This document shows positions 1,696 to 18,717 of a stretch of 20,000 nucleotides of DNA, one piece after another. The notes under the pieces are model-generated. The model saw nothing but the letters and a program-made list of their open reading frames with translations, did no database searches and was not told where the DNA came from. The stretch lies in the IMG/VR virus record IMGVR_UViG_3300048006_000261; one strand, given 5' to 3'. Positions within the stretch are counted from its first letter, which is position 1. Each line of letters opens with the position of its first letter. This DNA is from an uncultured virus (IMG/VR IMGVR_UViG_3300048006_000261) (lineage: Duplodnaviria; Heunggongvirae; Uroviricota; Caudoviricetes). A program made the position numbers and the translations under genes.

Positions 1696-1697
1696 CT

Positions 1698-2903: not shown

Positions 2904-3208
2904 TGGAAGAGTTATCAGAAAAGTCACAAGTAAAACTTGACATAAAAACATTAATAGGTATAATCGTAGGTATTGTATCTGTAGCTGGTATATGGTTTGA
3001 TCTAACAGCAAAGATAAGCACTATAGATAGTCAGCTTGTTAGATTAGAATATAACCAAACCTTAAATGATGAGTTTAGAATAAAATGGCCCAGAGGTGAA
3101 ATGGGTGCTTTGCCAGATGATGCTAAGCAAGATTTAAGAATTGAATACCTGCAGAAAGATGTAGAAAAACTTATAGCAACAATTGAAGAACTAAAACAAA
3201 AAAAGTAA
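2903..3208 (+). CDS. Single-TM membrane protein with coiled-coil C-terminus (holin/spanin-like candidate)
   Basis: TM segment TLIGIIVGIVSVAGIWF, heptad-like tail, TAATG coupling to both neighbours. Confidence 0.6.
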   Translation: MEELSEKSQVKLDIKTLIGIIVGIVSVAGIWFDLTAKISTIDSQLVRLEYNQTLNDEFRIKWPRGEMGALPDDAKQDLRIEYLQKDVEKLIATIEELKQKK

Positions 3209-3528
3209 TGGCAAAGAATTTAGATGAAAATTATAAAATAGGTTTAGACATCGATGGTGATGGTAAACCAGATTTTGGTTTATCAATAAAAACAATAGGA
3301 GCGTTAGTGTTTGGTATAGTATCACTAGCTGGTGTTTGGTTTAGCTTAAAGGCAGATATAGCTTTAGCTATGGAAATGCCTGAGCCTACTATATCTAAAA
3401 CAGAGTGGGAGTTGAAAGACGAGTTAATACGTAACACTATCATGGACACTCAAGATGACGTAGAAATGATATTAGAAAAACTAGATAAGCTAGACGAAAG
3501 AATATACGAAATACAAAAAAATAGATAA
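3208..3528 (+). CDS. Single-TM coiled-coil protein, paralogous to 2903..3208
   Basis: IKTIGALVFGIVSLAGVWFSLKADI aligns with IKTLIGIIVGIVSVAGIWFDLTAKI. N-terminal DIDGDGKPD motif. Confidence 0.6.
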   Translation: MAKNLDENYKIGLDIDGDGKPDFGLSIKTIGALVFGIVSLAGVWFSLKADIALAMEMPEPTISKTEWELKDELIRNTIMDTQDDVEMILEKLDKLDERIYEIQKNR

Positions 3529-3938
3529 TGAAATATTTAATTTTAATTTTAATACCATTTTTATCTTTTTCACAATCAGATGTTCCTGATAAATACTGGT
3601 TAACTGATGATAATTTTGAAGATGTAGTTTCTGGTAATTCTGCTTTTGGAGATGATGATGATCAAACTATTCTTATAGAGTTTTGGGCAGATTTTAATAA
3701 AGAAAATTGCTTTAATGAATGGGAACAAGTAAAAGATGCTTTATATTATAGAGTAGATATATCTAAAGCCGCTAAAGCTAAAAAAGAATATAGAATACGT
3801 ATGGCGCCAACTTTGCTAATATTTAAGGGTGGTGAAAAACAAGCAACGTTTAAAGCTGGACTAGACTTGTTGCTACCAACAGATCTAAATGAAATACAAG
3901 AAACAATAAACGAGATTAACACAGCAAGTAAATTTTAA
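3528..3938 (+). CDS. Exported thioredoxin-fold protein lacking CxxC
   Basis: Signal peptide MKYLILILIPFLSFSQ. Trx motifs LTDDNF, ILIEFWADF, YRVDI, IRMAPTLLIFKGGE. Only one Cys. Confidence 0.7.
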   Translation: MKYLILILIPFLSFSQSDVPDKYWLTDDNFEDVVSGNSAFGDDDDQTILIEFWADFNKENCFNEWEQVKDALYYRVDISKAAKAKKEYRIRMAPTLLIFKGGEKQATFKAGLDLLLPTDLNEIQETINEINTASKF

Positions 3939-4405
3939 TGAAAAACATAAGTAAACATGTAACCTATAAAGAAGGTACTTATAGTAACACAGCTAATAGA
4001 CTTGGTTTAGCAAATGATCCTACAGAAGAGCAATTAGAAAATATGAAGCTAGTTGCAGAAAAAGTGTTTGAACCTCTTAGAGAGCACGTATCGCATCCTA
4101 TAAAGATTAATTCGTTCTTTCGTGGACCTCAACTTAACAAAGCTATTGGCGGAAGTCACTCGTCACAGCATTGTAAAGGCCAAGCTATAGATATTGACGA
4201 TAGCTATGGTAACTCTACTAATGCTTATATGTATGAGTGGATAAAGAAAAACCTAGATTACGATCAAATGATATGGGAGTTTGGCACTGATGAAAACCCA
4301 GACTGGGTACATGTTAGCTTTGTAAACGAAGGAGTGAATAGAAATAGATGCTTGAAAGCTTATAGAAAAGAGGGATCAAGAAAAACTTATTATAAAATTA
4401 TATAA
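3938..4405 (+). CDS. Peptidase M15A family protein, probable endolysin
   Basis: INSFFR..LNKAIGG..SQHCKGQAIDID and WVHVSF give the Zn-binding H-x6-D and distal H motifs. Confidence 0.85.
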   Translation: MKNISKHVTYKEGTYSNTANRLGLANDPTEEQLENMKLVAEKVFEPLREHVSHPIKINSFFRGPQLNKAIGGSHSSQHCKGQAIDIDDSYGNSTNAYMYEWIKKNLDYDQMIWEFGTDENPDWVHVSFVNEGVNRNRCLKAYRKEGSRKTYYKII

Positions 4406-4406
4406 A

Positions 4407-4832
4407 ATGACAAACAGAAACAAAAGAATTTTTATTAGATGCGTAGGACTAGGATTTTTTTTAACACTACTATTTGGTTGTGGTACTTACAATAACCAAC
4501 CTAAAATACAAGTAACACATGTACTAGCTGTTACTGAACAAGGTGATACATTGAGATTACCTATAAGTATGATTAAACCTAATGTATACTATAACGTAAT
4601 ATCATATCCTAATAGATATTATGGTAATTGGTACAATGGTTATTACCGACCTAGTTATAACAACTACAGACCTATATACGCTCCTAGCAGTGGTTCAGGT
4701 TCTAGTAACAATAATAATAATAATAATAACAATAACAACAACAATAATAACAATAAGCCTGATCCTAGACCAACGCCAGACATTATAGTAAGACCAAGTG
4801 GTGATGTTCTAAAAAAGAAAGGTGGTAATTAA
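4407..4832 (+). CDS. Predicted lipoprotein with Tyr/Asn-rich, poly-Asn and Pro-rich regions
   Basis: Basic N-terminus, hydrophobic stretch and lipobox LLFG-C, followed by a low-complexity C-terminal half. Confidence 0.6.
   Translation: MTNRNKRIFIRCVGLGFFLTLLFGCGTYNNQPKIQVTHVLAVTEQGDTLRLPISMIKPNVYYNVISYPNRYYGNWYNGYYRPSYNNYRPIYAPSSGSGSSNNNNNNNNNNNNNNNNKPDPRPTPDIIVRPSGDVLKKKGGN
4707..4754 (+). repeat. (AAY)16 trinucleotide repeat encoding 16 consecutive Asn
   Basis: aac aat aat aat aat aat aat aac aat aac aac aac aat aat aac aat, read directly. Confidence 0.95.
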
Positions 4833-4838
4833 TTAATT

Positions 4839-5159
4839 ATGGAAAGTGTATACAAAGGAAAAGGATGTGGACCACAAGCATTAGGTTCACCTAATAAAAT
4901 GATTAGTAAGATAGCTAAAGTTGCTAGTAAAGCTAAAGAAATAGATCAAGCTTATAGAAAAGAAGCTGCGGATGCTAAAAAAGATCCTGACTATTTAAAG
5001 TTTATGATTGATAATGAAGCTCCAGACTCTTCTAATAAAAAGAAAGCTAACTGCTGGAAAGGCTATAAAGCTGTAGGTAAAAAGAAATCACCTAGCGGTA
5101 AGAAAACTAAGGGTGGTAAAGTTAAAATGGTTAACAACTGTGTTAAGATAAAGAAGTAA
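4839..5159 (+). CDS. Basic phage protein with C-terminal CWKGY...VNNCV motif
   Basis: CWKGYKAVGKKKSPSGKKTKGGKVKMVNNCVK, a short motif I recall from other phage proteins. Lys-rich. Confidence 0.6.
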   Translation: MESVYKGKGCGPQALGSPNKMISKIAKVASKAKEIDQAYRKEAADAKKDPDYLKFMIDNEAPDSSNKKKANCWKGYKAVGKKKSPSGKKTKGGKVKMVNNCVKIKK

Positions 5160-5443
5160 TGTTTAACTTACCAGAATCAACCTTTTTAAAGAAAGGTAAA
5201 ATAAGAAAAACTACTAAAGGCAAAGGCCGTAACTTCAGAACAAAAGAAGAAGGTGCGGGTATGACATCTAAAGGTGTCAAAGAATATAGAAAGAAAAACC
5301 CAGGCAGTAAACTAAAAACGGCTGTAACAGGTAAAGTAAAACCTGGTAGTAAAGCCGCTAAGCGTAGAAAATCTTTTTGTGCAAGATCAAAAGGTTGGAC
5401 AGGTGAAAGAGGTAAAGCTGCTAGACGTAGATGGAAGTGTTAA
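5159..5443 (+). CDS. Highly basic phage protein, DUF6321-like
   Basis: GMTSKGVKEYRKKNPGSKLKTAVTG...AAKRRKSFCARS...RRRWKC. TAATG-coupled to the upstream gene. Confidence 0.65.
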   Translation: MFNLPESTFLKKGKIRKTTKGKGRNFRTKEEGAGMTSKGVKEYRKKNPGSKLKTAVTGKVKPGSKAAKRRKSFCARSKGWTGERGKAARRRWKC

Positions 5444-5444
5444 T

Positions 5445-5567
5445 ATGAAGTTTTTTGATTTAAATAACAATGGTAAATATGATTGGTGGGAATATATAAT
5501 ACCTATTATATTGCTACTATGTGTTGAAGTTGTAGCTGAAGTTATAGCTAAATTTTTGATATTTTAG
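5445..5567 (+). CDS. 40-aa membrane microprotein with an EF-hand-like loop
   Basis: ATG at 5445 is 1 nt after the upstream stop. MKFF-DLNNNGKYDWWE-YIIPIILLLCVEVVAEVIAKFLIF. Confidence 0.6.
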   Translation: MKFFDLNNNGKYDWWEYIIPIILLLCVEVVAEVIAKFLIF

Positions 5568-6333
5568 AATACTTAGGAGCGCTTCTAATTAGCTTCTCAT
5601 CTGTCATCCAACCATCATATTTTAACAACTTAGTATCTAAGTCGCTTAACAAATGCCAATTAATATCTCCTCTTCTTTTTAAGAAAGAAACATACTCTTG
5701 TTCTAGATTTTTATCATGAGCAGATTTTTGCATTGCATAACAAGGTAAATGCCAACTATGAGGATCAGCCGCACTTAATCTCCCTGCCTTATCAGATAAT
5801 CCAGGTACACTTACTGTTTTAGCAAAGAAATCAAAACCTATAAGATCAATACTTTTATAGGTTTTTACTTTTTGTAGAAACCATAACAATGTTATAAATC
5901 CAGCGCTAGGTCTTAAATCGTTAGACAGCATATCTTTACCGAACATACTCATTATATCTATAATTTCTTCATCTGTATACATCATTGTGTATAGCATACC
6001 TTGTGGTAGTCTTTTTTCTATTTCCCAATTTTTAAGCTGCAAATTACCTCTACATCTGTTAACTAGTATTTTAGATTTTTTAAATTTACCTTTTTCAAAA
6101 CGGTTTTTATTCTTATACCACTCAGGAGCTCTAAATTGACCAGTAACCCATATATCACATTTCTCGCCTATAGACTTTTCTTGTTCTGGTGTTGCAGATA
6201 TAGCTCTACCAAAGCGAACAATAATATCGTAGGAATCTATAGTCTTACCAAGCTTATGCTTCATAATTTCTACAGAGTTACCTACGAATACTATTCTTTT
6301 GTTTTTTACAAACTGTTGTATATCTTCCACCAC
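5548..6333 (-). CDS. GT29 (sialyltransferase-like) glycosyltransferase
   Basis: Sialylmotif-L-like RIVFVGNS...LGKTIDSYDIIVRF, S-like PSAGFITL...IDLIGFDFF, VS-like HDKNLE. GTG start. Confidence 0.75.
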   Translation of the reverse strand: MVEDIQQFVKNKRIVFVGNSVEIMKHKLGKTIDSYDIIVRFGRAISATPEQEKSIGEKCDIWVTGQFRAPEWYKNKNRFEKGKFKKSKILVNRCRGNLQLKNWEIEKRLPQGMLYTMMYTDEEIIDIMSMFGKDMLSNDLRPSAGFITLLWFLQKVKTYKSIDLIGFDFFAKTVSVPGLSDKAGRLSAADPHSWHLPCYAMQKSAHDKNLEQEYVSFLKRRGDINWHLLSDLDTKLLKYDGWMTDEKLIRSAPKYSKISKI

Positions 6334-6983
6334 TCTTCAGATAATTCAGAATCTTTATACTCATCAAACCAAGGTCCACCTTCTGTGTAATGAATAGCTC
6401 TTGCGTTTGTCTTAGTTATTTCATCAATACCAACTAACATATTATATCTTTTAGGTATTTCACCTATATCATTTTCATTTAAAAATTTAAACTCATGTAG
6501 TTGAGAAGCCGTTGCATTGTCTAGATATTTTTTAGATAATTTTCTATTTAACCTATTACAGTTAAATAACATCAACGAGCTCCAGTTTTTCTTTGGATAA
6601 GACTTGTTGTTAACTCCATTCATTTTGTTAGACTTAACTTCATAGTCATCATGTTTAACTACTGATATTGGTTTATCACCTAGGTATATACTAACTTCTC
6701 TAGGATCTACTCTCCACAAGAAATCGTTATCACAAAACAAAGCATAACCCTTGTAGTTCATTAACATTGGCACATAAAATCTAGTAAAAGAAAACTCAGT
6801 AGATTCTCCTTCTATATCTTCCCTGCCATAAACTCCTATTTCTTTTAATTTAGATTTATCTAAATAAGTTATATTAGCTTCTGGCCAATATTTTAATATT
6901 GAAGCTTTACAAACTTTTGTTGCTTCAGGGTATCTTGAGTCATGCCCTATAAAAATTTTAATACTTCCTGGTTTTTTATTCAT
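6306..6983 (-). CDS. GT-A fold glycosyltransferase (GT8-like / plant CDI-like)
   Basis: IFIGHDSR, STEFSFTRFYVP, DxD motif ALFCDNDFL, YPKKNWSSLMLFNC, HYTEGGPWF. Confidence 0.85.
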   Translation of the reverse strand: MNKKPGSIKIFIGHDSRYPEATKVCKASILKYWPEANITYLDKSKLKEIGVYGREDIEGESTEFSFTRFYVPMLMNYKGYALFCDNDFLWRVDPREVSIYLGDKPISVVKHDDYEVKSNKMNGVNNKSYPKKNWSSLMLFNCNRLNRKLSKKYLDNATASQLHEFKFLNENDIGEIPKRYNMLVGIDEITKTNARAIHYTEGGPWFDEYKDSELSEEWWKIYNSL

Positions 6984-7329
6984 TATTTACTTTTTTACCT
7001 GATGTTTTTCTTATTATATCATCGTGATTAAACTCTGCCCAATATAATTCAAATGCAACTCCAGATTCTTTACCTTCAAACTGATGATACTTACCTGGTT
7101 TAACCATTGTAAAATCACCTGCTTTTAATATGGTTTCGTCAACAAGACCTTGATCGTCTTGCCATACTCTTATTATCATCTCTCCAGACTCTACAAAAAA
7201 ACCGTTCCATTTAAATTTATGTTCGTGCTCTGAGCACTTGTATCCTTTATTAAATTCTATTCGGTGAAACTCTAATACACCGTTCTTGTGTATCATCTCT
7301 GTTGCACCCCATATCTTTCCTGCTTTCAT
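6976..7329 (-). CDS. Cupin-domain protein (sugar isomerase/epimerase-like)
   Basis: CSEHEHKFKWNGFFVESG and LKAGDFTMVKPGKYHQF are cupin motifs 1 and 2. Confidence 0.8.
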   Translation of the reverse strand: MKAGKIWGATEMIHKNGVLEFHRIEFNKGYKCSEHEHKFKWNGFFVESGEMIIRVWQDDQGLVDETILKAGDFTMVKPGKYHQFEGKESGVAFELYWAEFNHDDIIRKTSGKKVNNE

Positions 7330-8144
7330 TTCTTTTGATTATGTTTAAAGTAAGGCTTTCTCCAGTTTTGTGAATTTATTGGGAACCTTCTATTTATTAT
7401 TACTTGTTTTTTTGGTTTTTCTAACACATCGTGTAGATCAATCCATTCGTGCCTCTTGTTATCAGCTCTGTTTGTTATCTTAAACTTTTCTAAACTTTGA
7501 TTATCTTTATTAGTAAAGTGAACACTACATAATATTCTAGGTCCTATAGTTTCTACCTTGTGAAACTGATATTGAGGTATGTAAAGCATATCACCCTCGT
7601 CTAATATAAACTCTTCTAATATTTCTTTAGGCTTGTTAGGTACAAACTCTTTATATATCGTCCATTTAACTTTACCGCTTTGGTGAAACAAAAAATTATC
7701 AGTAGCATCACCGTGAGCAGGAAAGCTTTTAGATCCAGCTTTGGGTGAAACATATACATTAACTTGACCTTTTTTAAAGTACCTTTCAAACTCAAAAACA
7801 ACATCTAACAATTGTTTACTTTCGTATTCAGCAAATGGTATTACAAATGATTTACCTTTTTTCCAAAAATTATGTATACCTGCTTTGGTAAACATAGGTT
7901 GATTTGATTTTTTTCTTTTAACTTTATCAAAACACCATCTTTCATCTTTATCGTTATAATCAAGAACCTGAAGATGAGGTACGTTAGGGTATCTGTTTAT
8001 GTACTTAGTTAAATGACCCCAGTGAAACAAATCTTTAAATTTATTTCTTCTAATAACTAAATGTTTTTTACCCCAGTACTCTTTAAAAAATAAGTCTATT
8101 GGTATTGGATCTAGTATTTCTTTTAATGTTATTTCTTTTTTCAT
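7326..8144 (-). CDS. JmjC / Cupin_4 2-oxoglutarate-Fe(II) oxygenase (YcfD/RoxA-NO66-like core)
   Basis: FFKEYWGKKHLVIRR, NVYVSP...FPAHGD (HxD), GKVKW, LDEGDMLYIP..FH (distal His). Confidence 0.85.
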   Translation of the reverse strand: MKKEITLKEILDPIPIDLFFKEYWGKKHLVIRRNKFKDLFHWGHLTKYINRYPNVPHLQVLDYNDKDERWCFDKVKRKKSNQPMFTKAGIHNFWKKGKSFVIPFAEYESKQLLDVVFEFERYFKKGQVNVYVSPKAGSKSFPAHGDATDNFLFHQSGKVKWTIYKEFVPNKPKEILEEFILDEGDMLYIPQYQFHKVETIGPRILCSVHFTNKDNQSLEKFKITNRADNKRHEWIDLHDVLEKPKKQVIINRRFPINSQNWRKPYFKHNQKK

Positions 8145-8147
8145 ATT

Positions 8148-9869
8148 TTATCCGTCGCAGCTTAAACAGTTAGGGTCTATCGCTTGTTTAGCTATATCAC
8201 CTCTAAGAACTGATTCAGTTCTCATGTAATATAAAGTTTTAATTCCTTTTTTCCATGCATCTAAATGAACCTTATTTATAAATTTAGGTTCTGCTTCTGA
8301 TGGAAAAGCTAAGTTCAAACTAACAGATTGATCTATGTATTGTTGTCTTATTCCTGCTTGATTAATTAGTTCAAGTTGATTTATTTCTTTGAAAGTTTTG
8401 AAGACTTCTTTGAGTGGTATATCGTGATCGCCCAATGTAATTTTCTCTAATGCTTTTACGCCCTGCACCGAGCCCCCGTCCTTTAATATTTGGTCCCATA
8501 TTTTTTTATTGTTTAAATTGTTTTCTTCTAATACTTTTTCAAGAGTTGGATTTTTACGTATGAAAGTGCCTTTCGCAGACTGGTCTGTAAAAACATTAGC
8601 AGCCCAAGGCTCAATTCCAGGACTAATATTCCCAGATAACTTACTGTTACTAACAGTAGGAGCAATAGCTCTAAGATGAGTGTTCCTAAATCCTGTGCCA
8701 ACGCACCATAGTGGTTCGTTAAACGCTTCAGCCAAAGCCATACTAGCTCTTTCCGATTCAATTTTAATTTGACTAAAAATTCTTCTTGTTTCATATTGTG
8801 ATAATAAACCTTCAAAAGGTAATCCTTTTTGTTGTAAGTAAGTATGCCATCCAACTACGCCTAAACCAAGTGCTCTACCTTTTTCAGCAGATCTTACTGA
8901 GTTTTCAAACCCTCTTCTATTTTTTGCTTTCTGTATAAACTCTTCTAATACACCATCTAAAAACCATATACTATCGTATATTAAATTACTGTTTTTCCAC
9001 TCATGATATTTAGCTAGATTTAAACTAGATAAACAACAAATAAAACTATGGTTTTCATCTGTATGTAATGTAATTTCACTACATATATTAGTCATATGTA
9101 CTTTTAAAGCATTATCTTTATAAGCAGAAGGATTATTCTTATTAACGTTACCTTTAAACATTATATAAGGCTCTCCTGTAGCTTTACGCTTCTGTAATAG
9201 TTTACCCCATTTACGTCTAGAAACTTTATCTCCATCTCTAAGCTTTCTCATAAACTTATCACCAACTACAGCACATTGGTGTAGGTTAAGTGATTGTCTA
9301 TTTACATCTCCTTTAGGTTCTCTTATTTCTAACCAGTCTTCAAAATCAGCATGTTCAATATTTATATTAACAGAGGCAGCACCTCTTCTAACTGACCCTT
9401 GGTTTGTAGCTAGTATTGTAGAGTCATATATCTTACAAAAAGGCACAACACCATCTGATGTACCATTGCCTGTTATATTAGCACCTGCAGGTCTAATTTG
9501 ATTTATACCTATACCAACACCTCCACCGTGCTTGGCTAGTAACATCATTTCTAAATTCTTTTGGCCTATATCGATTATGCTATCTGCAACATCAATACCA
9601 AAACAACTTATTGGAAAACCTTTATCAGTACCAGTGTTACTAAGCACAGGGCTAGCAAGACAAAGCCAACCTTTCCAGATGTAATCAAAAAAGATGTCCT
9701 CCATTTCTTTTTTCTGTAATCTATTCGCAACTGTTTTAGCAACTCTTCTGTACGCTTGTCTTGGTGTTTCATCTTCTAATAAATATCCTCCTTGTATTGT
9801 TTTTTTATATACGTCGGACTCTGCCCAACTTGGGTAATCTATACCCTTTTTCCATCTATTGCTCCACAT
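8148..9869 (-). CDS. nrdA: Ribonucleotide reductase class I alpha subunit, compact, no ATP cone
   Basis: SPVLSN, PISCF, GGGVG, TNICSEI, CCLSS, IAPTVSNS, TLYY and C-terminal CLSC. Confidence 0.95.
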   Translation of the reverse strand: MWSNRWKKGIDYPSWAESDVYKKTIQGGYLLEDETPRQAYRRVAKTVANRLQKKEMEDIFFDYIWKGWLCLASPVLSNTGTDKGFPISCFGIDVADSIIDIGQKNLEMMLLAKHGGGVGIGINQIRPAGANITGNGTSDGVVPFCKIYDSTILATNQGSVRRGAASVNINIEHADFEDWLEIREPKGDVNRQSLNLHQCAVVGDKFMRKLRDGDKVSRRKWGKLLQKRKATGEPYIMFKGNVNKNNPSAYKDNALKVHMTNICSEITLHTDENHSFICCLSSLNLAKYHEWKNSNLIYDSIWFLDGVLEEFIQKAKNRRGFENSVRSAEKGRALGLGVVGWHTYLQQKGLPFEGLLSQYETRRIFSQIKIESERASMALAEAFNEPLWCVGTGFRNTHLRAIAPTVSNSKLSGNISPGIEPWAANVFTDQSAKGTFIRKNPTLEKVLEENNLNNKKIWDQILKDGGSVQGVKALEKITLGDHDIPLKEVFKTFKEINQLELINQAGIRQQYIDQSVSLNLAFPSEAEPKFINKVHLDAWKKGIKTLYYMRTESVLRGDIAKQAIDPNCLSCDG

Positions 9870-9870
9870 A

Positions 9871-10122
9871 TTATGTTATTAAGTGTTTTATCCAAGCAAA
9901 TAAACCATTAAGGTTTAATGCTACTAAATTCCATTGTTTTCTTGATCCTGTCTGTACCATAACACAAATAAAACCTATTATATATAACCAAGGTTCTAAT
10001 GTCCATTGTGCGGCTACTAGAAAACCGGCACCCATATATCCAATACGGGTTGCCATCCTTTCTAATACTGTTAATTGTCTTTTTCTTTCGACAAGAAACT
10101 TTTTAAATTTATAACTTACCAT
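9871..10122 (-). CDS. Small multi-TM membrane protein between nrdB and nrdA
   Basis: Fills the gap with tight coupling to both genes. About three short hydrophobic segments. Confidence 0.65.
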   Translation of the reverse strand: MVSYKFKKFLVERKRQLTVLERMATRIGYMGAGFLVAAQWTLEPWLYIIGFICVMVQTGSRKQWNLVALNLNGLFAWIKHLIT

Positions 10123-11084
10123 ACATCTTCAAAATCTTCTCCTTCATTCGCCTTACTATAGTCAGTCGACCTAATCGCGAAAAAATCAGTGTGGGTATGA
10201 CCCCCAGTAAGATGATAGAACCAATCCAAATTACCCGCTGCTTTTTCGTCATATGAGAAGTACGATCCGAGATCCACGTAACCAAGTTCTTGTAATTTTT
10301 CATTAGTTCTTTTTCTTATAAATTGTTTTAGGTCATAAGACTTTATACCATCTATATCACCCATTTCAAACATCTTTTCTATATACTTTTCTTCTAATTC
10401 AACCATTATCTTAGCTGCATCTACAATATCTTCTCTACAGTCTTCTAATAAATCTTTATCTTCTTCGCACATGTGTCTAAACAATTGACAACCCATACGG
10501 CTGTGTAAAGATTCATCTCTAACTGACCATTTCATTTGTTGGCCAATACCTTTAAGTAAATTACGTAGCTGAAAGCTATACAAAACGGCAAAAGCAGAGT
10601 ATAAAGAAACTCCTTCTGCGAAAGCAGAGAAAACAGCCAGTGACTTTGCGATACCTCTTTTATCGTCGCCATCATATGCAACGAGGTTATCAAAACGCTC
10701 AGCCGTAGCTGGTTCATGAAGAAACGCTTCATAATCTTCTAGTTTTAATGTTTCGTTTAAATAACTATATGCTACAGCATGTACAGTTTCCTGTGAGCCA
10801 AACATCATAGCCATTTGTTGTATCTCGTGCTTTGGAAACCACGATACTACTTTCTGAGTCCAGTAATCACTTACTGCACATTCAGTCTGAGCAAAACCTA
10901 GTAAGATGTTTCCTACTAGGTGTTTCTCTTTTGCTGTTAAAGACTCGTTCCAGTCCTTAACATCTCCACTCATAGGTATTTCAGTATGTAACCAAAATGC
11001 TTGAGCTTGTTTTAACCAACCTTCAGTATAGTACTCAGGGTAGTCAAATGGTTTATATGCAATACGTTTGTCGAATAATCCCAT
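10116..11084 (-). CDS. nrdB: Ribonucleotide reductase class I beta subunit
   Basis: FWLHTE, AQTE, ETVHAVAY, AEGVSLYSAF, RDESLH, DFFAIRSTDY. Confidence 0.95.
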   Translation of the reverse strand: MGLFDKRIAYKPFDYPEYYTEGWLKQAQAFWLHTEIPMSGDVKDWNESLTAKEKHLVGNILLGFAQTECAVSDYWTQKVVSWFPKHEIQQMAMMFGSQETVHAVAYSYLNETLKLEDYEAFLHEPATAERFDNLVAYDGDDKRGIAKSLAVFSAFAEGVSLYSAFAVLYSFQLRNLLKGIGQQMKWSVRDESLHSRMGCQLFRHMCEEDKDLLEDCREDIVDAAKIMVELEEKYIEKMFEMGDIDGIKSYDLKQFIRKRTNEKLQELGYVDLGSYFSYDEKAAGNLDWFYHLTGGHTHTDFFAIRSTDYSKANEGEDFEDVW

Positions 11085-11085
11085 G

Positions 11086-11226
11086 TTAATAATATAAAGT
11101 TAAACAAATATCAAATACGCCCACGTAAATTACGTGATCTATCTTATTACCATCTGGGTACTGTCTGTATCCAAATAATATTCCATTAAATAAGCCAAAG
11201 CTTAATTCCCAATTACTTTCTTCCAT
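11086..11226 (-). CDS. 46-aa hypothetical protein (not in ORF track)
   Basis: MEESNWELSFGLFNGILFGYRQYPDGNKIDHVIYVGVFDICLTLYY*. Fills the gap, and its stop lies 1 nt before the nrdB ATG. Confidence 0.65.
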   Translation of the reverse strand: MEESNWELSFGLFNGILFGYRQYPDGNKIDHVIYVGVFDICLTLYY

Positions 11227-11671
11227 CTATTTTTTTTATTAGTTCTACGGTCATATCACATTCTTTTTGGTTTTGAGGTTTATACAAAGTAAAAGGTCCT
11301 ACTCTATCATTTGCTATCAGCCTTTTAAATAATTTCCATCTCATTGGAAAAGACTCATTAGCTCTACCCTTTGTTTCAATTATAAAACCTTTACCTATAA
11401 AATCAGGTGTGTATTTTATATTTAAAATCTTTTTATTACCTCTATTTTTATATTCACCTTTACCATTGCCGCATCTTTCGTATGCTTCAAAAGGGAAATC
11501 AAAACCCTCTACTAGTTCAAATGTTTGTCCTTCGTAAAGAGCTTTAATGTTCGCTTTTTTTAAAGCCATGTACATATAACGTTCTAGTCCTGACGCAAAA
11601 GTAATACCGTCGTAAGTTATTTTCTTTGACTGTACAGGACCTTTTTTTCTTTTATAAAACTTCTTTTTCAT
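11213..11671 (-). CDS. T7 endonuclease I-like PD-(D/E)xK nuclease / resolvase
   Basis: FASGLE, KYTPDF, IIETKG. Confidence 0.8.
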   Translation of the reverse strand: MKKKFYKRKKGPVQSKKITYDGITFASGLERYMYMALKKANIKALYEGQTFELVEGFDFPFEAYERCGNGKGEYKNRGNKKILNIKYTPDFIGKGFIIETKGRANESFPMRWKLFKRLIANDRVGPFTLYKPQNQKECDMTVELIKKIDGRK

Positions 11672-11939
11672 TGACGTCTATATTAGTTACATCTGCTGTG
11701 AATCTTTTATAGGCTACTTCTTCTATTTCATCGTTTAAACATCTTCTAGCTGCTTGTATGTACAGTATTGCATCCATTAATTCTTCTTGTACATCAATAA
11801 GAAATCTATTAAGATCTTTTTCTTCACCCTCAATCTCTTGCATCATTGTAGCGCCATATTTCTTTTGGCCTATTAAACTACGTTCGTCCATCTTTTTTAA
11901 GACTTGTTGAACTATTTTATCTTCTGTTTTAATCCTCAT
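11652..11939 (-). CDS. Small all-alpha protein, possible NTP-pyrophosphatase (MazG-superfamily)-like
   Basis: RSLIGQKKYG...VQEELMDAILY contains an EExxD acidic helix motif. Confidence 0.5.
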   Translation of the reverse strand: MRIKTEDKIVQQVLKKMDERSLIGQKKYGATMMQEIEGEEKDLNRFLIDVQEELMDAILYIQAARRCLNDEIEEVAYKRFTADVTNIDVNEKEVL

Positions 11940-12735
11940 CTTTCACAAATGTTCCGTTAATCATCTTGCCTGTTCTCTTGTTTATCACGTCGTATGCTGT
12001 TGCTATACACCTTTCAATTTTAACACCTTCTAAATGTGCTAGATTTGTGAGTACAACAACCATATCACCAATAGCATCTATAACTTCTGGCTTATCCTTC
12101 TTTAATAAAGCCTTTGCAAGTTCTCCAGCTTCTTCTTGTAGTTTAACATATTGTGTGTGTGAATTACCCTGTTGATATAATCCTCTTATTAATGCCCATT
12201 TTCTAATTTTATCAAATATACTTGATTTGCTAGTGGCTGATTCATTGTGTAACATTTCATGAACAACAGCGTGTTCATATTCAATAGGGTTTTTTTGAAA
12301 GTTTGACATAGCTTTATTATATACGTAGCTTCTGTCATTGTTAAACATAGAGGTTTTAACGTTTTGCATGATCCAATTAATTAGATCTAATGTTAGTTTA
12401 AAATCCCCGTGTTCTGTTTCCCATGCCATACCAATGTTATCCATTAGTTGTCCTTTAAGTTTATTGACTGGACAAGGAAAAGTCGTGGTTTGTTCGGTCA
12501 CGTTTATCTTCATATTTTTATTTGGTTTAAGGTTTCTATAAGGTACTAGATCTACTCTGTACCCATACTCTTTTTGTCTCTCAAGCTCTAAACAAGATAT
12601 ATAATCTATATCCTCTGAGCTTTCTAATATTTCATACTCATCAGGTGAATATCCTTGTTGAACTGTGACCCGGTTATTAAGATCACAGGTAACGCCAATT
12701 TTTTTACCTGGTATATGATATAAATAATATGTCAT
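11929..12735 (-). CDS. Multi-domain protein: GIY-YIG-like N-terminus, unknown middle domain, C-terminal MazG-like pyrophosphatase
   Basis: N-terminus YYLYHIPGKKIGVTCDLNNR. C-terminus KLQEEAGELAKA...VIDAIGDMVVVL...YDVINKRTGKMINGTFVK. Confidence 0.75.
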   Translation of the reverse strand: MTYYLYHIPGKKIGVTCDLNNRVTVQQGYSPDEYEILESSEDIDYISCLELERQKEYGYRVDLVPYRNLKPNKNMKINVTEQTTTFPCPVNKLKGQLMDNIGMAWETEHGDFKLTLDLINWIMQNVKTSMFNNDRSYVYNKAMSNFQKNPIEYEHAVVHEMLHNESATSKSSIFDKIRKWALIRGLYQQGNSHTQYVKLQEEAGELAKALLKKDKPEVIDAIGDMVVVLTNLAHLEGVKIERCIATAYDVINKRTGKMINGTFVKDED

Positions 12736-13373
12736 AATTTGTCGTTATATATATGCATGTTATGTGCGTGATGGTAATACCATCCGACGTCAATAGACAG
12801 TCTCTCTGCAATCATTTTTTGTAATGATGAAAATTGATATTGATCGTTACAGAAACCGTACCAGATGTCATTAGAACGCATATAAACAGACATATTTAGT
12901 TTATTGTCTATTATTGTAAATTGTATTGCATAGGTACAAGGTGTATCGTTACGATACTTATCAAACTCTTTGCAATCATATATACTAATAGCCGCGTGTC
13001 TAGTATTGGGGTTTTCTCTTAATTTACCAACTACATAATCTATTTGATTATTACGTTGCCATTGATAACCGTAGTTACTATTTACTTCTCTATCGCTATT
13101 AGCCATCTTTTCCCATATAGGTGGAACTTTACCATACAGTTCACCTAACTTGTCTATACTAGGATCGCCTGATAAATACCATTGCCATTCGGCTTCTGCA
13201 TATTCATGAGACCATTTTCTGAATTTGTTTTTGATATGATTGTCTAATGGATCTTCTATTGTGAAGCCTACATTAAACAAAGCTTTAGTATTATCAAAAT
13301 CTACACCTTCAGTAATTAAGTCGTGCATTACACAGTTGAAAGCCTCGTTTGCATTTAAAAATTTATTTCGCAT
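12732..13373 (-). CDS. Thymidylate-synthase-fold enzyme, T4 gp42-like dCMP hydroxymethylase/methylase
   Basis: Likely start is ATG 13373 (MRNKFL, 213 aa). Motifs EWQWY, PPIWEKMA..EVNSNYG, DTPCT, MRSNDIWYGFCND, HNMHIY. Asp at the pyrimidine specificity position. Confidence 0.8.
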   Translation of the reverse strand: MRNKFLNANEAFNCVMHDLITEGVDFDNTKALFNVGFTIEDPLDNHIKNKFRKWSHEYAEAEWQWYLSGDPSIDKLGELYGKVPPIWEKMANSDREVNSNYGYQWQRNNQIDYVVGKLRENPNTRHAAISIYDCKEFDKYRNDTPCTYAIQFTIIDNKLNMSVYMRSNDIWYGFCNDQYQFSSLQKMIAERLSIDVGWYYHHAHNMHIYNDKL

Positions 13374-13608
13374 ATTTTTCGTAATAATATTTATAATAGT
13401 TAAATATAACTTCCCATAGTTCTCTGGAATCATAGTATTTAGGTGATCTGTTGACCTTACCATTTATCTGTATATCTATATACCAACTCATAAAGTTTTC
13501 TTTACAAAATGGAGATATGTATATTCCATTGTTTATACACCAATGATAGCATTTAAATTCGTAGCTATCATATGAGTATGCGGGTTGTTTTTGTTTTTTC
13601 TTTCTCAT
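13363..13608 (-). CDS. Hypothetical aromatic-rich protein (81 aa)
   Basis: ATG at 13608 overlaps the primase stop (ATGA). Fills the gap to the next gene. Confidence 0.65.
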   Translation of the reverse strand: MRKKKQKQPAYSYDSYEFKCYHWCINNGIYISPFCKENFMSWYIDIQINGKVNRSPKYYDSRELWEVIFNYYKYYYEKYAK

Positions 13609-15323
13609 GCTTCCCAAGGCATTGGCTCAGTTTCATCTACAGCATTTAACTGTGGTATAAATGAACCAGACCTGTGTTCCCATGTAAAAAACGATTCAGC
13701 GCCATTTTCACCTAGATTTTGAAACTTACATTTTAATACTTTTACTTTAGTATTTTTAGCTTCATAATCTCTATGTACTAACAGACCGTGATAACTAGCA
13801 TCATACCATTCACCACCACCTTTTATGTTGTACATTGTAGGTTCTTCTATTTTACCATCTTGGCCTTTATACATTTTAGTTGGATGTGCTACTATAAACG
13901 TTAAAACATCATACTTTTTACAAAAGGCTTCTATCTTTGCTAGATAGTCCATAGTATATCTGTTCACATCATCTGAAACTGCATTTGTATCTCTAACCTT
14001 ATTAAACGGATCAATAACTAAACATTTAATACCTTTACGTTTAACTAGCTCAGCACCTTTACGTAATACTGATTCTAAGCTATACTTATCCATATCTATA
14101 AAATAATAGTTATCATTTACATGATCTGAAACTTCTTTCCATTTGCTATTACCTATATCACCAGGCGCAGGCATATCACCCCAAGTCTTACGCATAAGCT
14201 TGTGGGCGTGTAAATAAATAGGTGCGTTTTCAGGACTAGCAAAAGCTGTCTTCCAACCATACTGTTTATTATAACCAACTACCATCTGATCAACGAAGTC
14301 AGACTTTCCGCTACTAGGTATCCCAGTAACAGTGATGAACTGCCCAGTATAAGTACTAAAAACATCGTCAAAATTAGACAGCCCAACTTGGAAGCCAGGT
14401 TTGAAACCATTTTTAACAAAATCTTTAAGTTCATTTTCTATATTTTTTAGTGTTGTTACATTTTCTAAAGGTACTGGTTGCGCCGTGTGTATAGCAGAAC
14501 GTAAAGCATCTACTCCGTGTTTTAGTAAATACTCGTTAGAATCTTTGCAGTCTACAAAATCTACTATAAAACAATTTTCAGCACCTAACCTACGTATAAA
14601 CTCTTGTTTAAGCATTTGGCCAGGTTCATCAGCATCAACCGCTAGTATTATCTTTTCTTTGTCATCAAAATAATCTATACAGTTATCAAGATAGTCTAAA
14701 TTATTGTGGTTTAACGTTGCACCGTTTGGTACTGATATTACGTTAGGCACACCTGCCTCGTGTAGGGCTAGAACGTCCATTTCGCCTTCAACTATAACAC
14801 AACTGTTATGACCTACAATACTGTTAATATTGTAAAATACTTTTTCAGCTCCTTTGTATAGTTTAAAGTTTTTACGTCCATCTCTATATTTTACATTGAT
14901 AAGTTGATTACCTATGTAATAGTTAAATTTTATTGTATTCTCAGTCTTACCTGTCTGTGGCATAAACTCAGGACCCTCGCTGACATCTAAGTCAATGAGA
15001 GTCTTCTGAGATATACCTCGAGACTTAAACCAATCAACAACTTTACTACTTGGTACCGTAAGCTCTTGAGCTACAGGGCGAACGTATTCACGATCGCTAG
15101 TACCTTTACGTTGATACGTGTGTAGTTGAAAAGTTGAATCACAGTTGTGACAAGTACCGAGACCACGTTCCCAATCATAAGAAGCACATTTAAGCTTTTT
15201 GTTTTTAGGCTTTCTAGTGTGTGAGCACAAAGGACAAGTCCCTTGCGTCTTACCAACTTCTAGCTTGTGTTGATTGAACTCATCAATCTTAAACCCATTG
15301 ATCTCTATTTCTTCTACTTGCAT
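13605..15323 (-). CDS. T7 gp4/Twinkle-like primase-helicase
   Basis: Zn finger CPLC...CHNC, TOPRIM IVEGEMD and AVDADEPG, Walker A GIPSSGKS, Walker B LVIDPF, VAHP. Confidence 0.95.
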   Translation of the reverse strand: MQVEEIEINGFKIDEFNQHKLEVGKTQGTCPLCSHTRKPKNKKLKCASYDWERGLGTCHNCDSTFQLHTYQRKGTSDREYVRPVAQELTVPSSKVVDWFKSRGISQKTLIDLDVSEGPEFMPQTGKTENTIKFNYYIGNQLINVKYRDGRKNFKLYKGAEKVFYNINSIVGHNSCVIVEGEMDVLALHEAGVPNVISVPNGATLNHNNLDYLDNCIDYFDDKEKIILAVDADEPGQMLKQEFIRRLGAENCFIVDFVDCKDSNEYLLKHGVDALRSAIHTAQPVPLENVTTLKNIENELKDFVKNGFKPGFQVGLSNFDDVFSTYTGQFITVTGIPSSGKSDFVDQMVVGYNKQYGWKTAFASPENAPIYLHAHKLMRKTWGDMPAPGDIGNSKWKEVSDHVNDNYYFIDMDKYSLESVLRKGAELVKRKGIKCLVIDPFNKVRDTNAVSDDVNRYTMDYLAKIEAFCKKYDVLTFIVAHPTKMYKGQDGKIEEPTMYNIKGGGEWYDASYHGLLVHRDYEAKNTKVKVLKCKFQNLGENGAESFFTWEHRSGSFIPQLNAVDETEPMPWEA

Positions 15324-15332
15324 TTAATTTAA

Positions 15333-15425
15333 TTAAAATTCTTCTTCGTCTCTACAATCTGGACATATGTCGCAGAACAAATACTCGTCCTGCGTCATAC
15401 CTTGTCCACATATTTCACATTCCAT
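15333..15425 (-). CDS. 30-aa Cys-rich zinc-finger-like microprotein (not in ORF track)
   Basis: MECEICGQGMTQDEYLFCDICPDCRDEEEF*. TAATG overlap with the SSB stop. Confidence 0.65.
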   Translation of the reverse strand: MECEICGQGMTQDEYLFCDICPDCRDEEEF

Positions 15426-15736
15426 TAAAATGGTAGATCATCTGCAACAGCCGCAGACGGAGCTGGAGCTTGTTGTTGTTGATCATCTCTTGGTGCAACC
15501 GCGACGTTATCGCCGTTCGTCCATACTACCTTTACATTACCTAAGTAAGTCTTAGCAGTTTTAGCATCTCTTTCCTCTTTTGACTGTTGAACAGACACAG
15601 GACCTTGATTGCCAAACTGATCTAACTCATCGTTTAATGTAATAGTTATCGGTAAGTATTTACCTTTCTTACCTATAATAATTTTATCCTTAGGTATAGC
15701 GTTAAGGTTTATACTTGTTGCTATTATACTTGCCAT
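15425..15736 (-). CDS. Putative single-stranded DNA-binding protein
   Basis: Likely start is ATG 15736 (MASIIATSINL). Gln/Ala/Pro linker and acidic DDLPF tail. Lies between the recombination genes and primase. Confidence 0.7.
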   Translation of the reverse strand: MASIIATSINLNAIPKDKIIIGKKGKYLPITITLNDELDQFGNQGPVSVQQSKEERDAKTAKTYLGNVKVVWTNGDNVAVAPRDDQQQQAPAPSAAVADDLPF

Positions 15737-15737
15737 A

Positions 15738-15920: not shown

Positions 15921-15930
15921 AATTATTATA

Positions 15931-16674: not shown

Positions 16675-16675
16675 A

Positions 16676-18703: not shown

Positions 18704-18717
18704 TTGCCTATTACTAT

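Follow-up and report, generated by a model that had tools for sequence, protein, structure and literature searches.

On balance, we favor a reading in which the gene run described here, which lies in a 20,000-nucleotide stretch of DNA from an uncultured virus (the whole stretch is called the window), comprises two separate modules: a gp42-like end and a four-gene cassette that would make a hexose-Kdo glycan on a non-DNA acceptor. The proposed connection between these ends is weak.

Gene organization of the run

5548..6333, minus strand: GT29-like (sialyltransferase-fold) glycosyltransferase (GT), 261 aa, soluble, candidate CMP-Kdo transferase (PF00777)
6306..6983, minus strand: GT8-like retaining GT-A glycosyltransferase, 225 aa (AF2 and Foldseek, phrog_28018)
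6976..7329, minus strand: metal-type cupin, 117 aa (Cupin_2, 7.5e-8)
7326..8144, minus strand: JmjC 2-oxoglutarate/Fe(II) oxygenase, ribosomal-oxygenase (MINA53/NO66/YcfD) type, 272 aa (JmjC_2, 2.4e-15)
8148..9869, minus strand: RNR large subunit (PF02867, 2.1e-89; phrog_84, 1e-145)
9871..10122, minus strand: hydrophobic conserved ORF between the RNR genes, 83 aa (61-99% identity in relatives; no family match in Pfam or PHROGs)
10116..11084, minus strand: RNR small subunit (PF00268, 2.9e-58)
11213..11671, minus strand: DUF1064 / Holliday-junction-resolvase-like endonuclease (PF06356, 3.9e-8; phrog_190 'Holliday junction resolvase', 2.1e-12)
11652..11939, minus strand: 95-aa protein with invariant QEELMDA (matches only PHROGs without assigned function)
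11929..12735, minus strand: 268-aa fusion of N-terminal domains and a C-terminal MazG-type NTP pyrophosphohydrolase, candidate dCTPase (PF03819, PF01503, phrog_1992)
12732..13373, minus strand: gp42-like TS-fold enzyme with a 5-hydroxymethyl-dCMP synthase signature, 213 aa (PDB profile matches, residues)
13363..13617, minus strand: conserved 84-aa ORF (phrog_5945, 6.5e-4)
13605..15323, minus strand: T7-type bifunctional primase-helicase (Toprim_2, 2.5e-13; DnaB_C; phrog_239, 5.4e-82)

The ORF listing revealed that the run was unbroken in direction from 15323 to 5548 and that neighboring genes overlapped or sat 1-3 nt apart, with a sole larger gap of 128 nt (11085-11212); the four cassette genes overlapped one another by 4-28 nt. 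As evident from this listing and from Pfam, every gene was found where the sequence-only reading had placed it. The conserved synteny of all run genes on many viral contigs, together with dN/dS values of 0.06-0.28 in the cassette, showed that the run genes are real. Relatives, too, had the conserved 84-aa ORF upstream of their TS slot, and the endonuclease carried no feature marking cytosine-DNA specificity. The closest isolate to the primase-helicase was Cellulophaga phage phi10:1 (42.6%), and the source is probably a marine phage of Flavobacteriia.

The gp42-like enzyme and its MazG partner

Pfam matched Thymidylat_synt (3.5e-28) to the open frame 12732-13463; the match stopped at profile position 214 of 266, and the TS C-terminus was missing. 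An internal ATG at 13373, the end coordinate of the sequence-only reading, gives 213 aa and is probably the true start, because relatives start there. The PDB ranking placed MilA (6e-20) and T4 dCMP hydroxymethylase (1.1e-19) ahead of thymidylate synthases (3e-16). The enzyme carried the motifs NDTPCT and MRSNDIWYGFCND, the latter lying opposite MRSNDVVFGFRND in the T4 gp42 alignment, with Asp at the positions of N177 and L143 and with D169 retained. In the available part of PMC13326640, these same residues mark T4-type 5hm-dCMP synthases, and 5-hydroxy-dCMP synthases bear a D169N signature, unlike the window enzyme. The earlier Asp-type call was thus borne out by a full signature, and the residues suggest that the enzyme is a 5hm-dCMP synthase.

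The MazG fusion gene overlaps the TS-fold gene. MazG/PRA-PH was confined to the C-terminal part of the product (PF03819, 24.2 bits, and PF01503 in Pfam; phrog_1992, 3.7e-31; PDB 1vmg, 1.5e-7, spanning this part only), in agreement with the proposed MazG-domain pyrophosphatase fusion beside the gp42-like enzyme. The fusion adjoined the TS-fold gene in each of the 28 counted loci of the family, all of them selected for carrying it. Its N-terminal domains were conserved, and their description as GIY-YIG-like found no support, as Pfam gave no match and the PDB profile search reached the MazG part alone. The 95-aa protein had been read as a pyrophosphatase from its EExxD motif; this assignment no longer holds, as hhalign against the MazG fusion gave a probability of 0.2% and the best PDB match was not below E 0.27. 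The protein was missing in several relatives and is dispensable in some of them.

The T4 glucosyl-hmC pathway consists of gp42 dCMP hydroxymethylase, gp56 dCTPase, gp1 dNMP kinase and alpha/beta-glucosyltransferases. Like T4 gp42, the window enzyme has the catalytic Cys and the three Asp residues and lacks the TS C-terminus, and like T4, the window has a MazG-superfamily pyrophosphatase gene, here adjoining the gp42-like gene. Unlike in T4, a complete relative yielded no dNMP kinase, no phage DNA polymerase and no T4-type GT-B DNA glucosyltransferase, the nearby endonuclease of the window is resolvase-like, and the window GTs, which belong to the GT8 and GT29 types, occur independently of TS. 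In the first module, a pre-replicative one for cytosine, the MazG-type pyrophosphatase would lower the dCTP pool, the gp42-like enzyme would, judging from its residues, turn dCMP into 5-hydroxymethyl-dCMP, and entry of this nucleotide into DNA would depend on kinases and the polymerase of the host.

The glycosyltransferase cassette

Glyco_transf_29 matched residues 14-70 only of the 5548-6333 product, with an E-value of 4.1e-6 and 26.8 bits, above the PF00777 cut-off of 23 bits. In 24 sequences, conserved motifs similar to sialylmotifs L, S, III and VS were present and H195 and H206 did not vary; the motifs held against DLP_6 too. The AF2 model (pLDDT 83.1) matched the GT29 sialyltransferases ST6GALNAC2, ST8SiaIII and ST3Gal1 best in Foldseek (E 6e-8), followed by GT42 CstII, so the earlier GT29 fold call agreed with both profile and structure. 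As described in the available text of Petit et al. (2018; PMC5811610), in which 'phage' and 'virus' do not occur, bacterial GT29 sialyltransferase-like proteins share with the window enzyme these four motifs and the lack of a membrane anchor and of disulfide cysteines; in the available part of PMC11288761, a Kdo donor was proposed for plant GT29-like candidates for RG-II CMP-Kdo transferases. Unlike these bacterial and plant proteins, the window enzyme belongs to a phage-specific subfamily. Its 220 relatives at E<=1e-3 were almost all unnamed metagenome proteins, and only two one-kb single-cell contigs matched among 185,579 bacterial species genomes.

In relatives, kdsB-like and kdsA genes were placed between the cupin and GT8-like genes (KdsA, 324.5 bits against an NCBIfam cut-off of 242; KdsB-like, E 3e-39, under its NCBIfam cut-off), and kdsA occupied this position in 15 of 151 distinct GT29-bearing viral loci. 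Because relatives carry both genes inside the cassette, CMP-Kdo transfer is the most likely activity of the GT29-like enzyme. According to the available part of PMC12801897, Synechococcus phage S-SCSM2R has KdsA/KdsB and 13 GTs in a 'cell wall synthesis and modification' cluster; its GT8-like homolog (38% identity to that of the window) lies next to KdsB, KdsA and a 2OG oxygenase, functions assigned from annotation only. Unlike this cluster, the window cassette is minimal: it has four genes, none of them kdsA or kdsB, its oxygenase is a JmjC where S-SCSM2R has a P4H-type enzyme, and it contains a GT29-like enzyme that is absent from S-SCSM2R.

The GT8-like product had no Pfam match; it matched phrog_28018 (E 7e-48), and D85-N86-D87 (DxD) was invariant. 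Its AlphaFold model (pLDDT 83.9) supported the GT8-like call by matching GT8 enzymes first, with LgtC best (7e-9) and WbbM, GlyE, UGGT and glycogenin also found. One relative reached PF01501. The Atlas clusters were 86-100% viral, and 10-14% of their members carried PF01501. The cupin, whose family call was confirmed by Cupin_2, was the best-conserved cassette gene (84-97% identity where the GTs showed 56-82%). It had no PDB sequence match below E 0.26; nearby viral Atlas clusters carried MannoseP_isomer on 12-36% of members or Lyx_isomer on 13-22%, and a sugar or sugar-phosphate isomerase is a possible assignment.

Profile comparison of the JmjC protein with the PDB gave MINA53 (1.1e-15, residues 7-200), NO66 (5e-8), a YcfD-like cupin-4 protein (6e-5) and FIH (1e-3), and no TET, AlkB or TYW5 chains were among the 30 matches listed. 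The HxD...H iron triad aligned with that of the ROX enzymes, and H144, D146 and H195 were invariant in 20 sequences. MINA53, NO66 and YcfD, which belong to the ROX branch, are ribosomal-protein hydroxylases, and as the nearest solved relatives they uphold, together with JmjC_2, the ROX-type call. Unlike ROX enzymes of 373-470 aa, the window enzyme is, by length alone, too short for their C-terminal domains.

The second module would be a cytoplasmic glycan module that is widespread among marine phages whatever their cytosine chemistry. A hexose would be added from a UDP-sugar by the GT8-like enzyme, and the GT29-like enzyme would cap it with the acidic sugar Kdo from CMP-Kdo, which would be host-derived here and, in relatives, made through phage kdsA/kdsB; as a sugar-phosphate isomerase, the cupin may feed the pathway, and the ROX-type JmjC would hydroxylate the acceptor or the glycan. 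By the kinship of the JmjC (MINA53, NO66, YcfD) and GT8-like (LgtC, GlyE, glycogenin, UGGT) enzymes, a glycan or a protein would be the acceptor; the partners found elsewhere, SET-domain and radical-SAM/SPASM proteins in other lineages and annotated FkbM methyltransferases and a sulfotransferase in Mosig, point the same way. We consider DNA an improbable acceptor and tentatively suggest a virion or host protein; a glycolipid or polysaccharide of the host envelope is a rather doubtful candidate.

Cassette distribution and competing explanations

PF00303 was absent from all 30 non-family viral records carrying the GT8-like/GT29-like pair, including G007 and G017, which are rated 100% complete. 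The TS-fold gene was likewise absent from all four isolated phage genomes carrying the GT8-like gene and from each of the 19 non-family loci for which 8 kb or more of upstream sequence was available; in family genomes the same search does recover the short type of TS. An Asp-type TS was present in 28/28 family loci with the TS slot in view, comprising 16 of the short hydroxymethyl type and 12 of full length with Leu143 kept. The latter are predicted to yield methyl-dCMP, and their 'methyl-type' label is provisional because the Leu143 rule separating methyl from hydroxymethyl types is a correlation. Purifying selection on the cassette was equal in both groups (dN/dS, hydroxymethyl/methyl: JmjC 0.24/0.21, GT8-like 0.25/0.22, GT29-like 0.28/0.19, cupin 0.07/0.06). 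The sequence-only reading had proposed the cassette as the tailoring arm of an hmC pathway, which a distribution independent of the Asp-type TS would contradict; the spread proved largely independent, and this together with the equal constraint argues against that role. Its own caveat, that proteins or surface glycans may be the target, is the better reading.

A single pathway, in which 5hmC in phage DNA is glycosylated by the GT8-like enzyme and extended by the GT29-like enzyme to hexosyl-Kdo-hmC, with the JmjC supplying or modifying the hydroxyl (in methyl-type relatives it could oxidise 5mC), is in our view unlikely. It draws on the hm-dCMP synthase signature with its MazG partner and, weakly, on the basic pI of the GT29-like and JmjC proteins (9.45 and 9.67). 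Further points in its favor count against two separate modules. In the complete relative G003 (hydroxymethyl type), the two cassette enzymes were the only GTs found, and no other glycosyltransferase able to protect hmC DNA was found; both GT families are virus-specific. The cassette takes an early position beside RNR, in a nucleotide-metabolism operon in several lineages, and DNA-modifying genes are often located in such operons. A Tet_JBP dioxygenase is encoded by two phages with the GT pair, DLP_6 (E 1e-20) and its relative G007 (4e-22), in both cases above cut-off, so a hydroxylated base may exist in that lineage. In its available part, preprint 10.1101/2023.12.21.572611 describes Kdo-like and multi-sugar adducts on 5hmC, which give a Kdo-mass adduct precedent, the Kdo-like sugar being placed by a phage GT-B enzyme. 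However, the pathway is at odds with the GT carriers lacking a TS-fold gene, of which G017 (complete), G030 and G032 lack Tet_JBP as well. The GTs are not relaxed in the 12 methyl-type loci and the JmjC is constrained in the hydroxymethyl type, so one component would be redundant in each group. The protein-hydroxylating kinship of the JmjC and the failure to find a dNMP kinase in a complete relative also speak against it. Like the 5mYOX/ThyS-associated systems (same preprint) and arabinosyl-5-hydroxycytosine, another phage DNA sugar modification (PMC13326640), the window has a TS homolog sharing an operon with GTs; as far as the available parts of these sources go, their GTs are JGT/TarP-like GT-A or T4-beta-GT-like GT-B enzymes, unlike the GT8 and GT29 types here, and 'GT29' and 'sialic' do not occur in that part of the preprint.

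We regard it as quite unlikely that the cassette remodels the host envelope by building a hexose-Kdo branch on the LPS core or capsule that blocks superinfection or progeny re-adsorption, in line with the 'lock-out' idea as extended to LPS-type genes of marine phages. LOS and O-antigen are targets of GT8 enzymes such as LgtC and WbbM, Kdo is a sugar of LPS, and phage kdsA/kdsB and GT genes are classed as cell-wall synthesis/modification in the available parts of PMC12801897 and PMC5332604; but the virus-specific GTs, with bacterial counterparts almost nil, speak against LPS enzymes borrowed from a host, inspection of the sequences by eye showed no obvious signal peptide or membrane anchor, and neither a flippase nor a ligase belongs to the cassette. 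Nor does LPS assembly have a role for the ROX-type JmjC or for the SET-domain and radical-SAM/SPASM proteins that partner the GTs in other lineages. Very unlikely, in turn, is that the four genes form no single pathway and that the JmjC acts independently (e.g., on a host ribosomal protein, as YcfD) as a chance neighbor of a two-GT module. In 94 loci the sequence extended 3 kb or more upstream of the GT29-like gene; of these, 92 had the GT8-like gene, but only 56 the JmjC and 52 the cupin, and lineages such as G017 have RNR and both GTs with no oxygenase nearby. Against this stand the overlaps among the cassette genes in the window and the repeated presence of an oxygenase next to the GT8-like gene, in forms unrelated to each other: group D loci have a JmjC there, and the S-SCSM2R cluster has a P4H-type 2OG oxygenase.

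Gene order of the window and its putative cytosine module

The window had a G+C content of 30-37% and consisted of a plus-strand structural and lysis block (1-5443) that was convergent with a minus-strand block for replication and nucleotide metabolism (5548-19989). Along the stretch from 15323 to 5548, neighboring genes overlapped or were spaced by 1-3 nt, with a 128-nt gap at 11085-11212 as the sole exception.

Genes of the run from 15323 to 5548 in transcription order, with the databases supporting each assignment in brackets
1, minus strand, T7-type primase-helicase (Pfam, PHROGs)
2, minus strand, 84-aa ORF
3, 12732-13373, minus strand, thymidylate synthase (TS)-fold protein (Pfam)
4, 11929-12735, minus strand, 268-aa protein with MazG as its C-terminal third (Pfam, PHROGs)
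5, 11652-11939, minus strand, 95-aa protein
6, minus strand, DUF1064/resolvase-like endonuclease (Pfam, PHROGs)
7, minus strand, RNR beta (Pfam)
8, minus strand, 83-aa hydrophobic ORF
9, minus strand, RNR alpha (Pfam, PHROGs)
10, 7326-8144, minus strand, JmjC_2 oxygenase (Pfam)
11, 6976-7329, minus strand, Cupin_2 protein (Pfam)
12, 6306-6983, minus strand, 225-aa protein of phrog_28018, a family with no assigned function (PHROGs)
13, 5548-6333, minus strand, protein above the Pfam Glyco_transf_29 threshold (Pfam)

The promoter and terminator scan, whose coverage did not extend to Bacteroidota-type promoters, returned 36 sites against a shuffled mean of 46.5 and 4 sites against 4.1, respectively; since such sites were no commoner than in shuffled sequence, operon boundaries were not definable from the scan. 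The nearest isolate by primase-helicase was Cellulophaga phage phi10:1 (42.6% identity), and one viral contig (G001) showed 86% identity to the window across the whole region. A megablast search against 50,697 phage records gave no DNA-level match to the region.

The TS-fold protein was most similar in the PDB to MilA, a CMP hydroxymethylase (E 6e-20), and to T4 dCMP hydroxymethylase (1.1e-19), while thymidylate synthases matched at 3e-16 or weaker. The TS C-terminus was missing, as the match ended at position 214 of the 266 in the Pfam profile. In the alignments with T4 gp42 and MilA, NDTPCT of the window was placed over SDFMCT and MRSNDIWYGFCND over MRSNDVVFGFRND; the catalytic Cys was present, and the T4 alignment revealed Asp at all three positions corresponding to L143, D169 and N177 of E. 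coli ThyA. According to PMC13326640, the ThyA N177D substitution selects dCMP, an acidic residue at L143 accompanies hydroxymethyl products, and D169N is the mark of 5-hydroxy-dCMP synthases. The earlier call of an Asp-type, gp42-like enzyme was thus correct and could be sharpened, in that the residues at these positions form the signature of a T4-type 5hm-dCMP synthase. A role as 5-hydroxy-dCMP synthase was considered and rejected because D169 is retained. The MazG domain adjoining this gene was confirmed by Pfam, PHROGs and a PDB profile search, and a dCTPase role is only a candidate. As judged from sequence, the TS-fold enzyme and the MazG fusion together are a good candidate for a 5hmC system, of a kind that is already known.

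Two of the earlier labels for this module were not borne out: neither Pfam nor the PDB profile search gave a GIY-YIG signal in the N-terminus of the MazG fusion, and the 95-aa "EExxD" protein, which had been taken as a second pyrophosphatase, resembled neither MazG nor any protein of solved structure. This 95-aa protein ends in an acidic tail, ...(I/V)xV(N/H)EEE(V/I)L, and in four relatives that are missing the gene (loci L014, L036, L040 and L065), the same tail closes the MazG fusion instead. It seems that a short C-terminal peptide is conserved at this position whichever ORF bears it.

The TS slot was in view in 28 loci of the family, which comprises relatives syntenic with the window, and all 28 carried an Asp-type enzyme of one of two kinds. 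The short gp42-like form was found in 16 loci and a full-length ThyA-like form in the other 12 (Pfam E 4e-75 to 6e-80). The latter aligned end to end with thymidylate synthases and kept Leu143 and Asp169, with N177 replaced by Asp (PYD versus PFN); this signature predicts a 5-methyl-dCMP synthase, the Leu143 rule being a correlation. The two forms are distant from each other and swap in situ, with the 84-aa ORF on one side and the MazG fusion on the other, at the position of window 12732-13373 (relatives at this slot: L014, L036, L062, L065, L070, L072, L078 and L080). Close phage relatives may therefore differ in cytosine chemistry, and a swap of hydroxymethyl and methyl synthases in one genomic slot offers a natural comparison for a change in phage DNA chemistry. 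The window represents an abundant family of marine phages predicted to replace or modify cytosine.

Enzyme families of the cassette and a candidate sugar donor

The enzyme families assigned to the cassette (JmjC, cupin, GT8-like and GT29-like) in the sequence-only reading proved largely right. Pfam family PF00777 matched the GT29-like protein of the window with 26.8 bits against a gathering score of 23, over residues 14-70 only, and matched homologs in other lineages with 21.3-36.4 bits. A search at E<=1e-3 gave 220 relatives, of which almost all were unnamed marine metagenome proteins. In a 24-sequence alignment, motifs resembling the four sialylmotifs were kept and both candidate catalytic histidines were invariant; the motifs also held against the 26%-identical homolog from Stenotrophomonas phage DLP_6. 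Read by eye on two alignments, they were VGNS...IDxYDxVVRFG, RPSAGF...IGFDFF, HSWH and AHDxxxE, which we take to be sialylmotifs L, S, III and VS (with the VS histidine), respectively. Sialylmotifs L, S, III and VS are named in Petit et al. (PMC5811610). A PDB sequence search gave a best E of 0.22. Using the AlphaFold model (pLDDT 83.1), Foldseek placed mammalian GT29 sialyltransferases first, with E down to 5.7e-8 and TM ~0.5; among the matches listed, ranks 1-28 were all GT29 sialyltransferases but for one entry titled merely glycosyltransferase, and GT42 enzymes (CstII) followed. Judged by Pfam match, motifs and modelled fold, the protein is a GT29-type enzyme with a GT-A variant sialyltransferase fold. 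Among the papers that literature searches returned, none described a phage-encoded GT29-like enzyme or a cassette of this kind.

Relatives of the GT29-like protein in 185,579 bacterial species genomes were limited to two 1-kb single-cell contigs, one from Flavobacterium sp. SCGC AAA160-P02 (L168, a 1-kb scaffold) and one from an alpha proteobacterium SAG (L167). Both are probably phage DNA in sorted cells, and the Flavobacterium contig agrees with the inferred host group.

The model of the 225-aa GT8-like protein (pLDDT 83.9) matched the GT8 enzymes LgtC, WbbM, GlyE and glycogenin as well as GT24 UGGT, and its DxD motif, D85-N86-D87, was invariant in 24 sequences. PF01501 (CAZy GT8) did not match the window protein in Pfam and was reached by one distant homolog (27.2 bits versus 24.3), and a profile search of PDB sequences gave no matches. 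On its modelled fold, the protein is a retaining GT-A enzyme with a DxD motif and fits GT8. Its protein clusters were 86-100% viral.

Profile matches of the 272-aa JmjC protein were MINA53 (1.1e-15), NO66, a YcfD-like protein and FIH, and its HxD...H triad fell in register with theirs. MINA53, NO66, YcfD and FIH are protein hydroxylases. By fold family and iron triad, the sequence belongs nearest to the ROX type of MINA53, NO66 and YcfD. Ribosomal oxygenases of this type act on ribosomal proteins and also have C-terminal dimerisation and winged-helix domains, for which a length of 272 aa is short. The cupin had no solved relative in a PDB sequence search (best E 0.26). Part of the viral ESM Atlas clusters near it carry mannose-6-phosphate-isomerase or lyxose-isomerase Pfam families, which we regard as a lead only, and replacement of KdsD by the cupin is speculation.

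Viral contigs were searched with the GT29-like alignment (80 loci kept of 176 relatives) and again with ranking on the DLP_6 homolog (80 kept of 352); pooling both searches and dropping four twice-fetched contigs gave 151 distinct loci. Throughout the window family, the block from primase-helicase to GT29 was syntenic, and some members contained extra genes between the cupin and GT8-like genes. These included a KdsB-like cytidylyltransferase, whose best NCBIfam family match (E 3e-39) was under its cut-off, and a KdsA that passed both equivalog cut-offs (324.5 bits versus 242) and occupied this position in 15 of the 151 loci. Other inserts were small methyltransferase-like proteins (some Methyltransf_23) and a Cys-rich protein. 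KdsA and KdsB were absent from the window, and KdsD and KdsC were found in none of the loci examined. In Synechococcus phage S-SCSM2R, a homolog of the GT8-like gene adjoins genes annotated as KdsB and KdsA and one for a P4H-type 2OG oxygenase; the authors who described the phage filed these genes under cell-wall synthesis/modification without experiments (PMC12801897). Plant GT29-like proteins have been proposed as CMP-Kdo users (PMC11288761). The kdsB and kdsA genes inside the cassette of relatives are the best available evidence on the donor, and from them we infer that the GT29-like enzyme is a candidate CMP-Kdo transferase. A soluble enzyme of this kind would be of practical interest for glycoengineering.

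Relation of the cassette to the cytosine enzyme and its possible acceptors

The cassette had been proposed as the tailoring arm of the cytosine pathway, an idea that a cassette distribution independent of the Asp-type TS was to refute; we found the distribution to be largely independent. When whole records were searched for the TS family PF00303, there was no match in 30 records from other viral lineages carrying the GT8-like/GT29-like pair (two with a completeness rating of 100% and a further four with 66-76%), nor in four isolated phages with the GT8-like gene, one of which, DLP_6, also has the GT29-like gene. As a control, the same search recovered the short TS in family genomes. Gene order also varied, and the following four arrangements were seen elsewhere: methyltransferase, GT8, GT29, glutaredoxin and a GT-B enzyme (DLP_6-like phages); RNR alpha/beta, GT8 and GT29; RNR, optional JmjC, GT8, radical-SAM/SPASM, an SDR-like protein and GT29; and GT8, a SET-domain protein, radical-SAM and GT29.

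The pair (GT8-like alone in Mosig) lay directly downstream of RNR of class I or II in several lineages (L109, L121, L133, L123, L087 from Mosig, and L097), and glutaredoxin adjoins it instead in DLP_6-like phages. Shared ancestry of module order or a functional link may account for the RNR adjacency.

Within the family, the cassette was intact in both the hydroxymethyl-type and methyl-type groups, and its dN/dS values were as follows.

Median dN/dS of the cassette genes (21 pairs per group)
JmjC: 0.24 in hydroxymethyl-type, 0.21 in methyl-type
Cupin: 0.07 in hydroxymethyl-type, 0.06 in methyl-type
GT8-like: 0.25 in hydroxymethyl-type, 0.22 in methyl-type
GT29-like: 0.28 in hydroxymethyl-type, 0.19 in methyl-type

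These results bear on the reading in which the cassette tailors DNA, with the GT8-like enzyme glycosylating 5hmC, the GT29-fold enzyme capping it with Kdo and the ROX-type JmjC acting on the nucleobase or sugar, which we consider unlikely. If the glycosyltransferases depended on TS-made hmC, they would be expected to be dispensable in methyl-type phages, and if JmjC made hmC from 5mC, it would be expected to be dispensable in hydroxymethyl-type phages; neither was seen. Methyl-type relatives could, as a corollary of this reading, reach the same adduct through 5mC oxidation by JmjC; a role of JmjC as a TET-like 5mC oxidase was judged unlikely from the PDB profile matches and the dN/dS pattern. 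Adjacency to RNR favors the DNA reading, as does a preprint (10.1101/2023.12.21.572611) in which phage glycosyltransferases are reported to decorate 5hmC with glycans of several sugars and with a Kdo-mass adduct. However, the enzymes of that system are GT-B and JGT-like GT-A, unlike the GT8 and GT29 types of the window, and neither "GT29" nor "sialic" occurs in the preprint. A Tet_JBP domain was above cut-off in 2 of 15 records searched, DLP_6 and G007 (C1:11062-11493); the search found none in G017, G030, G032 and the family genomes. The DLP_6 domain is part of AAY80_030, annotated "SNF2 DNA repair protein" (KU682439.2 27179-28525; E 1.1e-20), which suggests that pyrimidines are oxidized after replication in this T4-like phage, and a hydroxylated pyrimidine may exist in its lineage; yet the dioxygenase is ~89 kb away from the glycosyltransferase cluster. 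The DLP6 study tested 18 restriction enzymes (PMC5349666). The complete 65.5-kb relative G003 (L090-L093) encodes a primase-helicase, ligase, Erf, exonuclease, sigma factor, GroEL/GroES and two virion proteins of >2100 aa. PHROGs and Pfam detected no DNA polymerase or further glycosyltransferase, and no known kinase family, and so no dNMP kinase, among the ORFs scanned (49 and 42, respectively); a T4-like route into DNA would therefore need host enzymes.

The near absence of the GT29-like protein from bacterial genomes and the viral GT8-like clusters point to virus-specific families, which fits a phage-specific acceptor, whether DNA or virion protein, better than borrowed LPS enzymes. Overall, the first observation was confirmed and its interpretation was half right: for the cassette, the better explanation is a phage-specific module that is mobile, stands apart from the cytosine enzyme and assembles a hexose-Kdo glycan in the cytoplasm. 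As the acceptor of this glycan, a protein of the virion or host is a reasonable possibility with a less than even chance, a host envelope glycoconjugate is rather improbable, DNA is doubtful to a similar degree, and other or unrelated functions take the remainder. The compact phage-specific set of oxygenase, cupin, GT8-like and GT29-like enzymes, sometimes with kdsA/kdsB and methyltransferases, recurs on no fewer than 151 distinct viral contigs, which span several lineages. A protein target would mean that phages perform a Kdo-capped glycosylation linked to hydroxylation, in a form not yet studied. With DNA as the target, DNA hypermodification would gain three enzyme families, and action on DNA would be shown for the first time for GT8, GT29 and JmjC enzymes.

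Other genes of the window and its relatives

In the plus-strand block, the gene at 4407-4832 (+) encodes a predicted lipoprotein with a lipobox-like LLFGCG and a run of 16 asparagines; homologs at the same position in relatives have Ser/Asn/Gly-rich tracts of variable length. The ORF at 3528-3938 (+), in the lysis/structural block, has a signal-peptide-like N-terminus, and its G003 homolog matched Pfam Thioredoxin (8.8e-7). The 173-aa protein at 18995-19516 (-) belongs to phrog_624 ("DNA binding protein"), and its G003 homolog (L091:6404-6925) scored 22.8 bits, just under the Pfam cut-off of 23, for Pyr_excise, the T4 endonuclease V-type pyrimidine-dimer glycosylase. In one relative, a gene with a glutamine-synthetase catalytic domain (Gln-synt_C, 5e-21; L083:2347-3325, minus strand) lies directly downstream of the cassette and may be an auxiliary metabolic gene.
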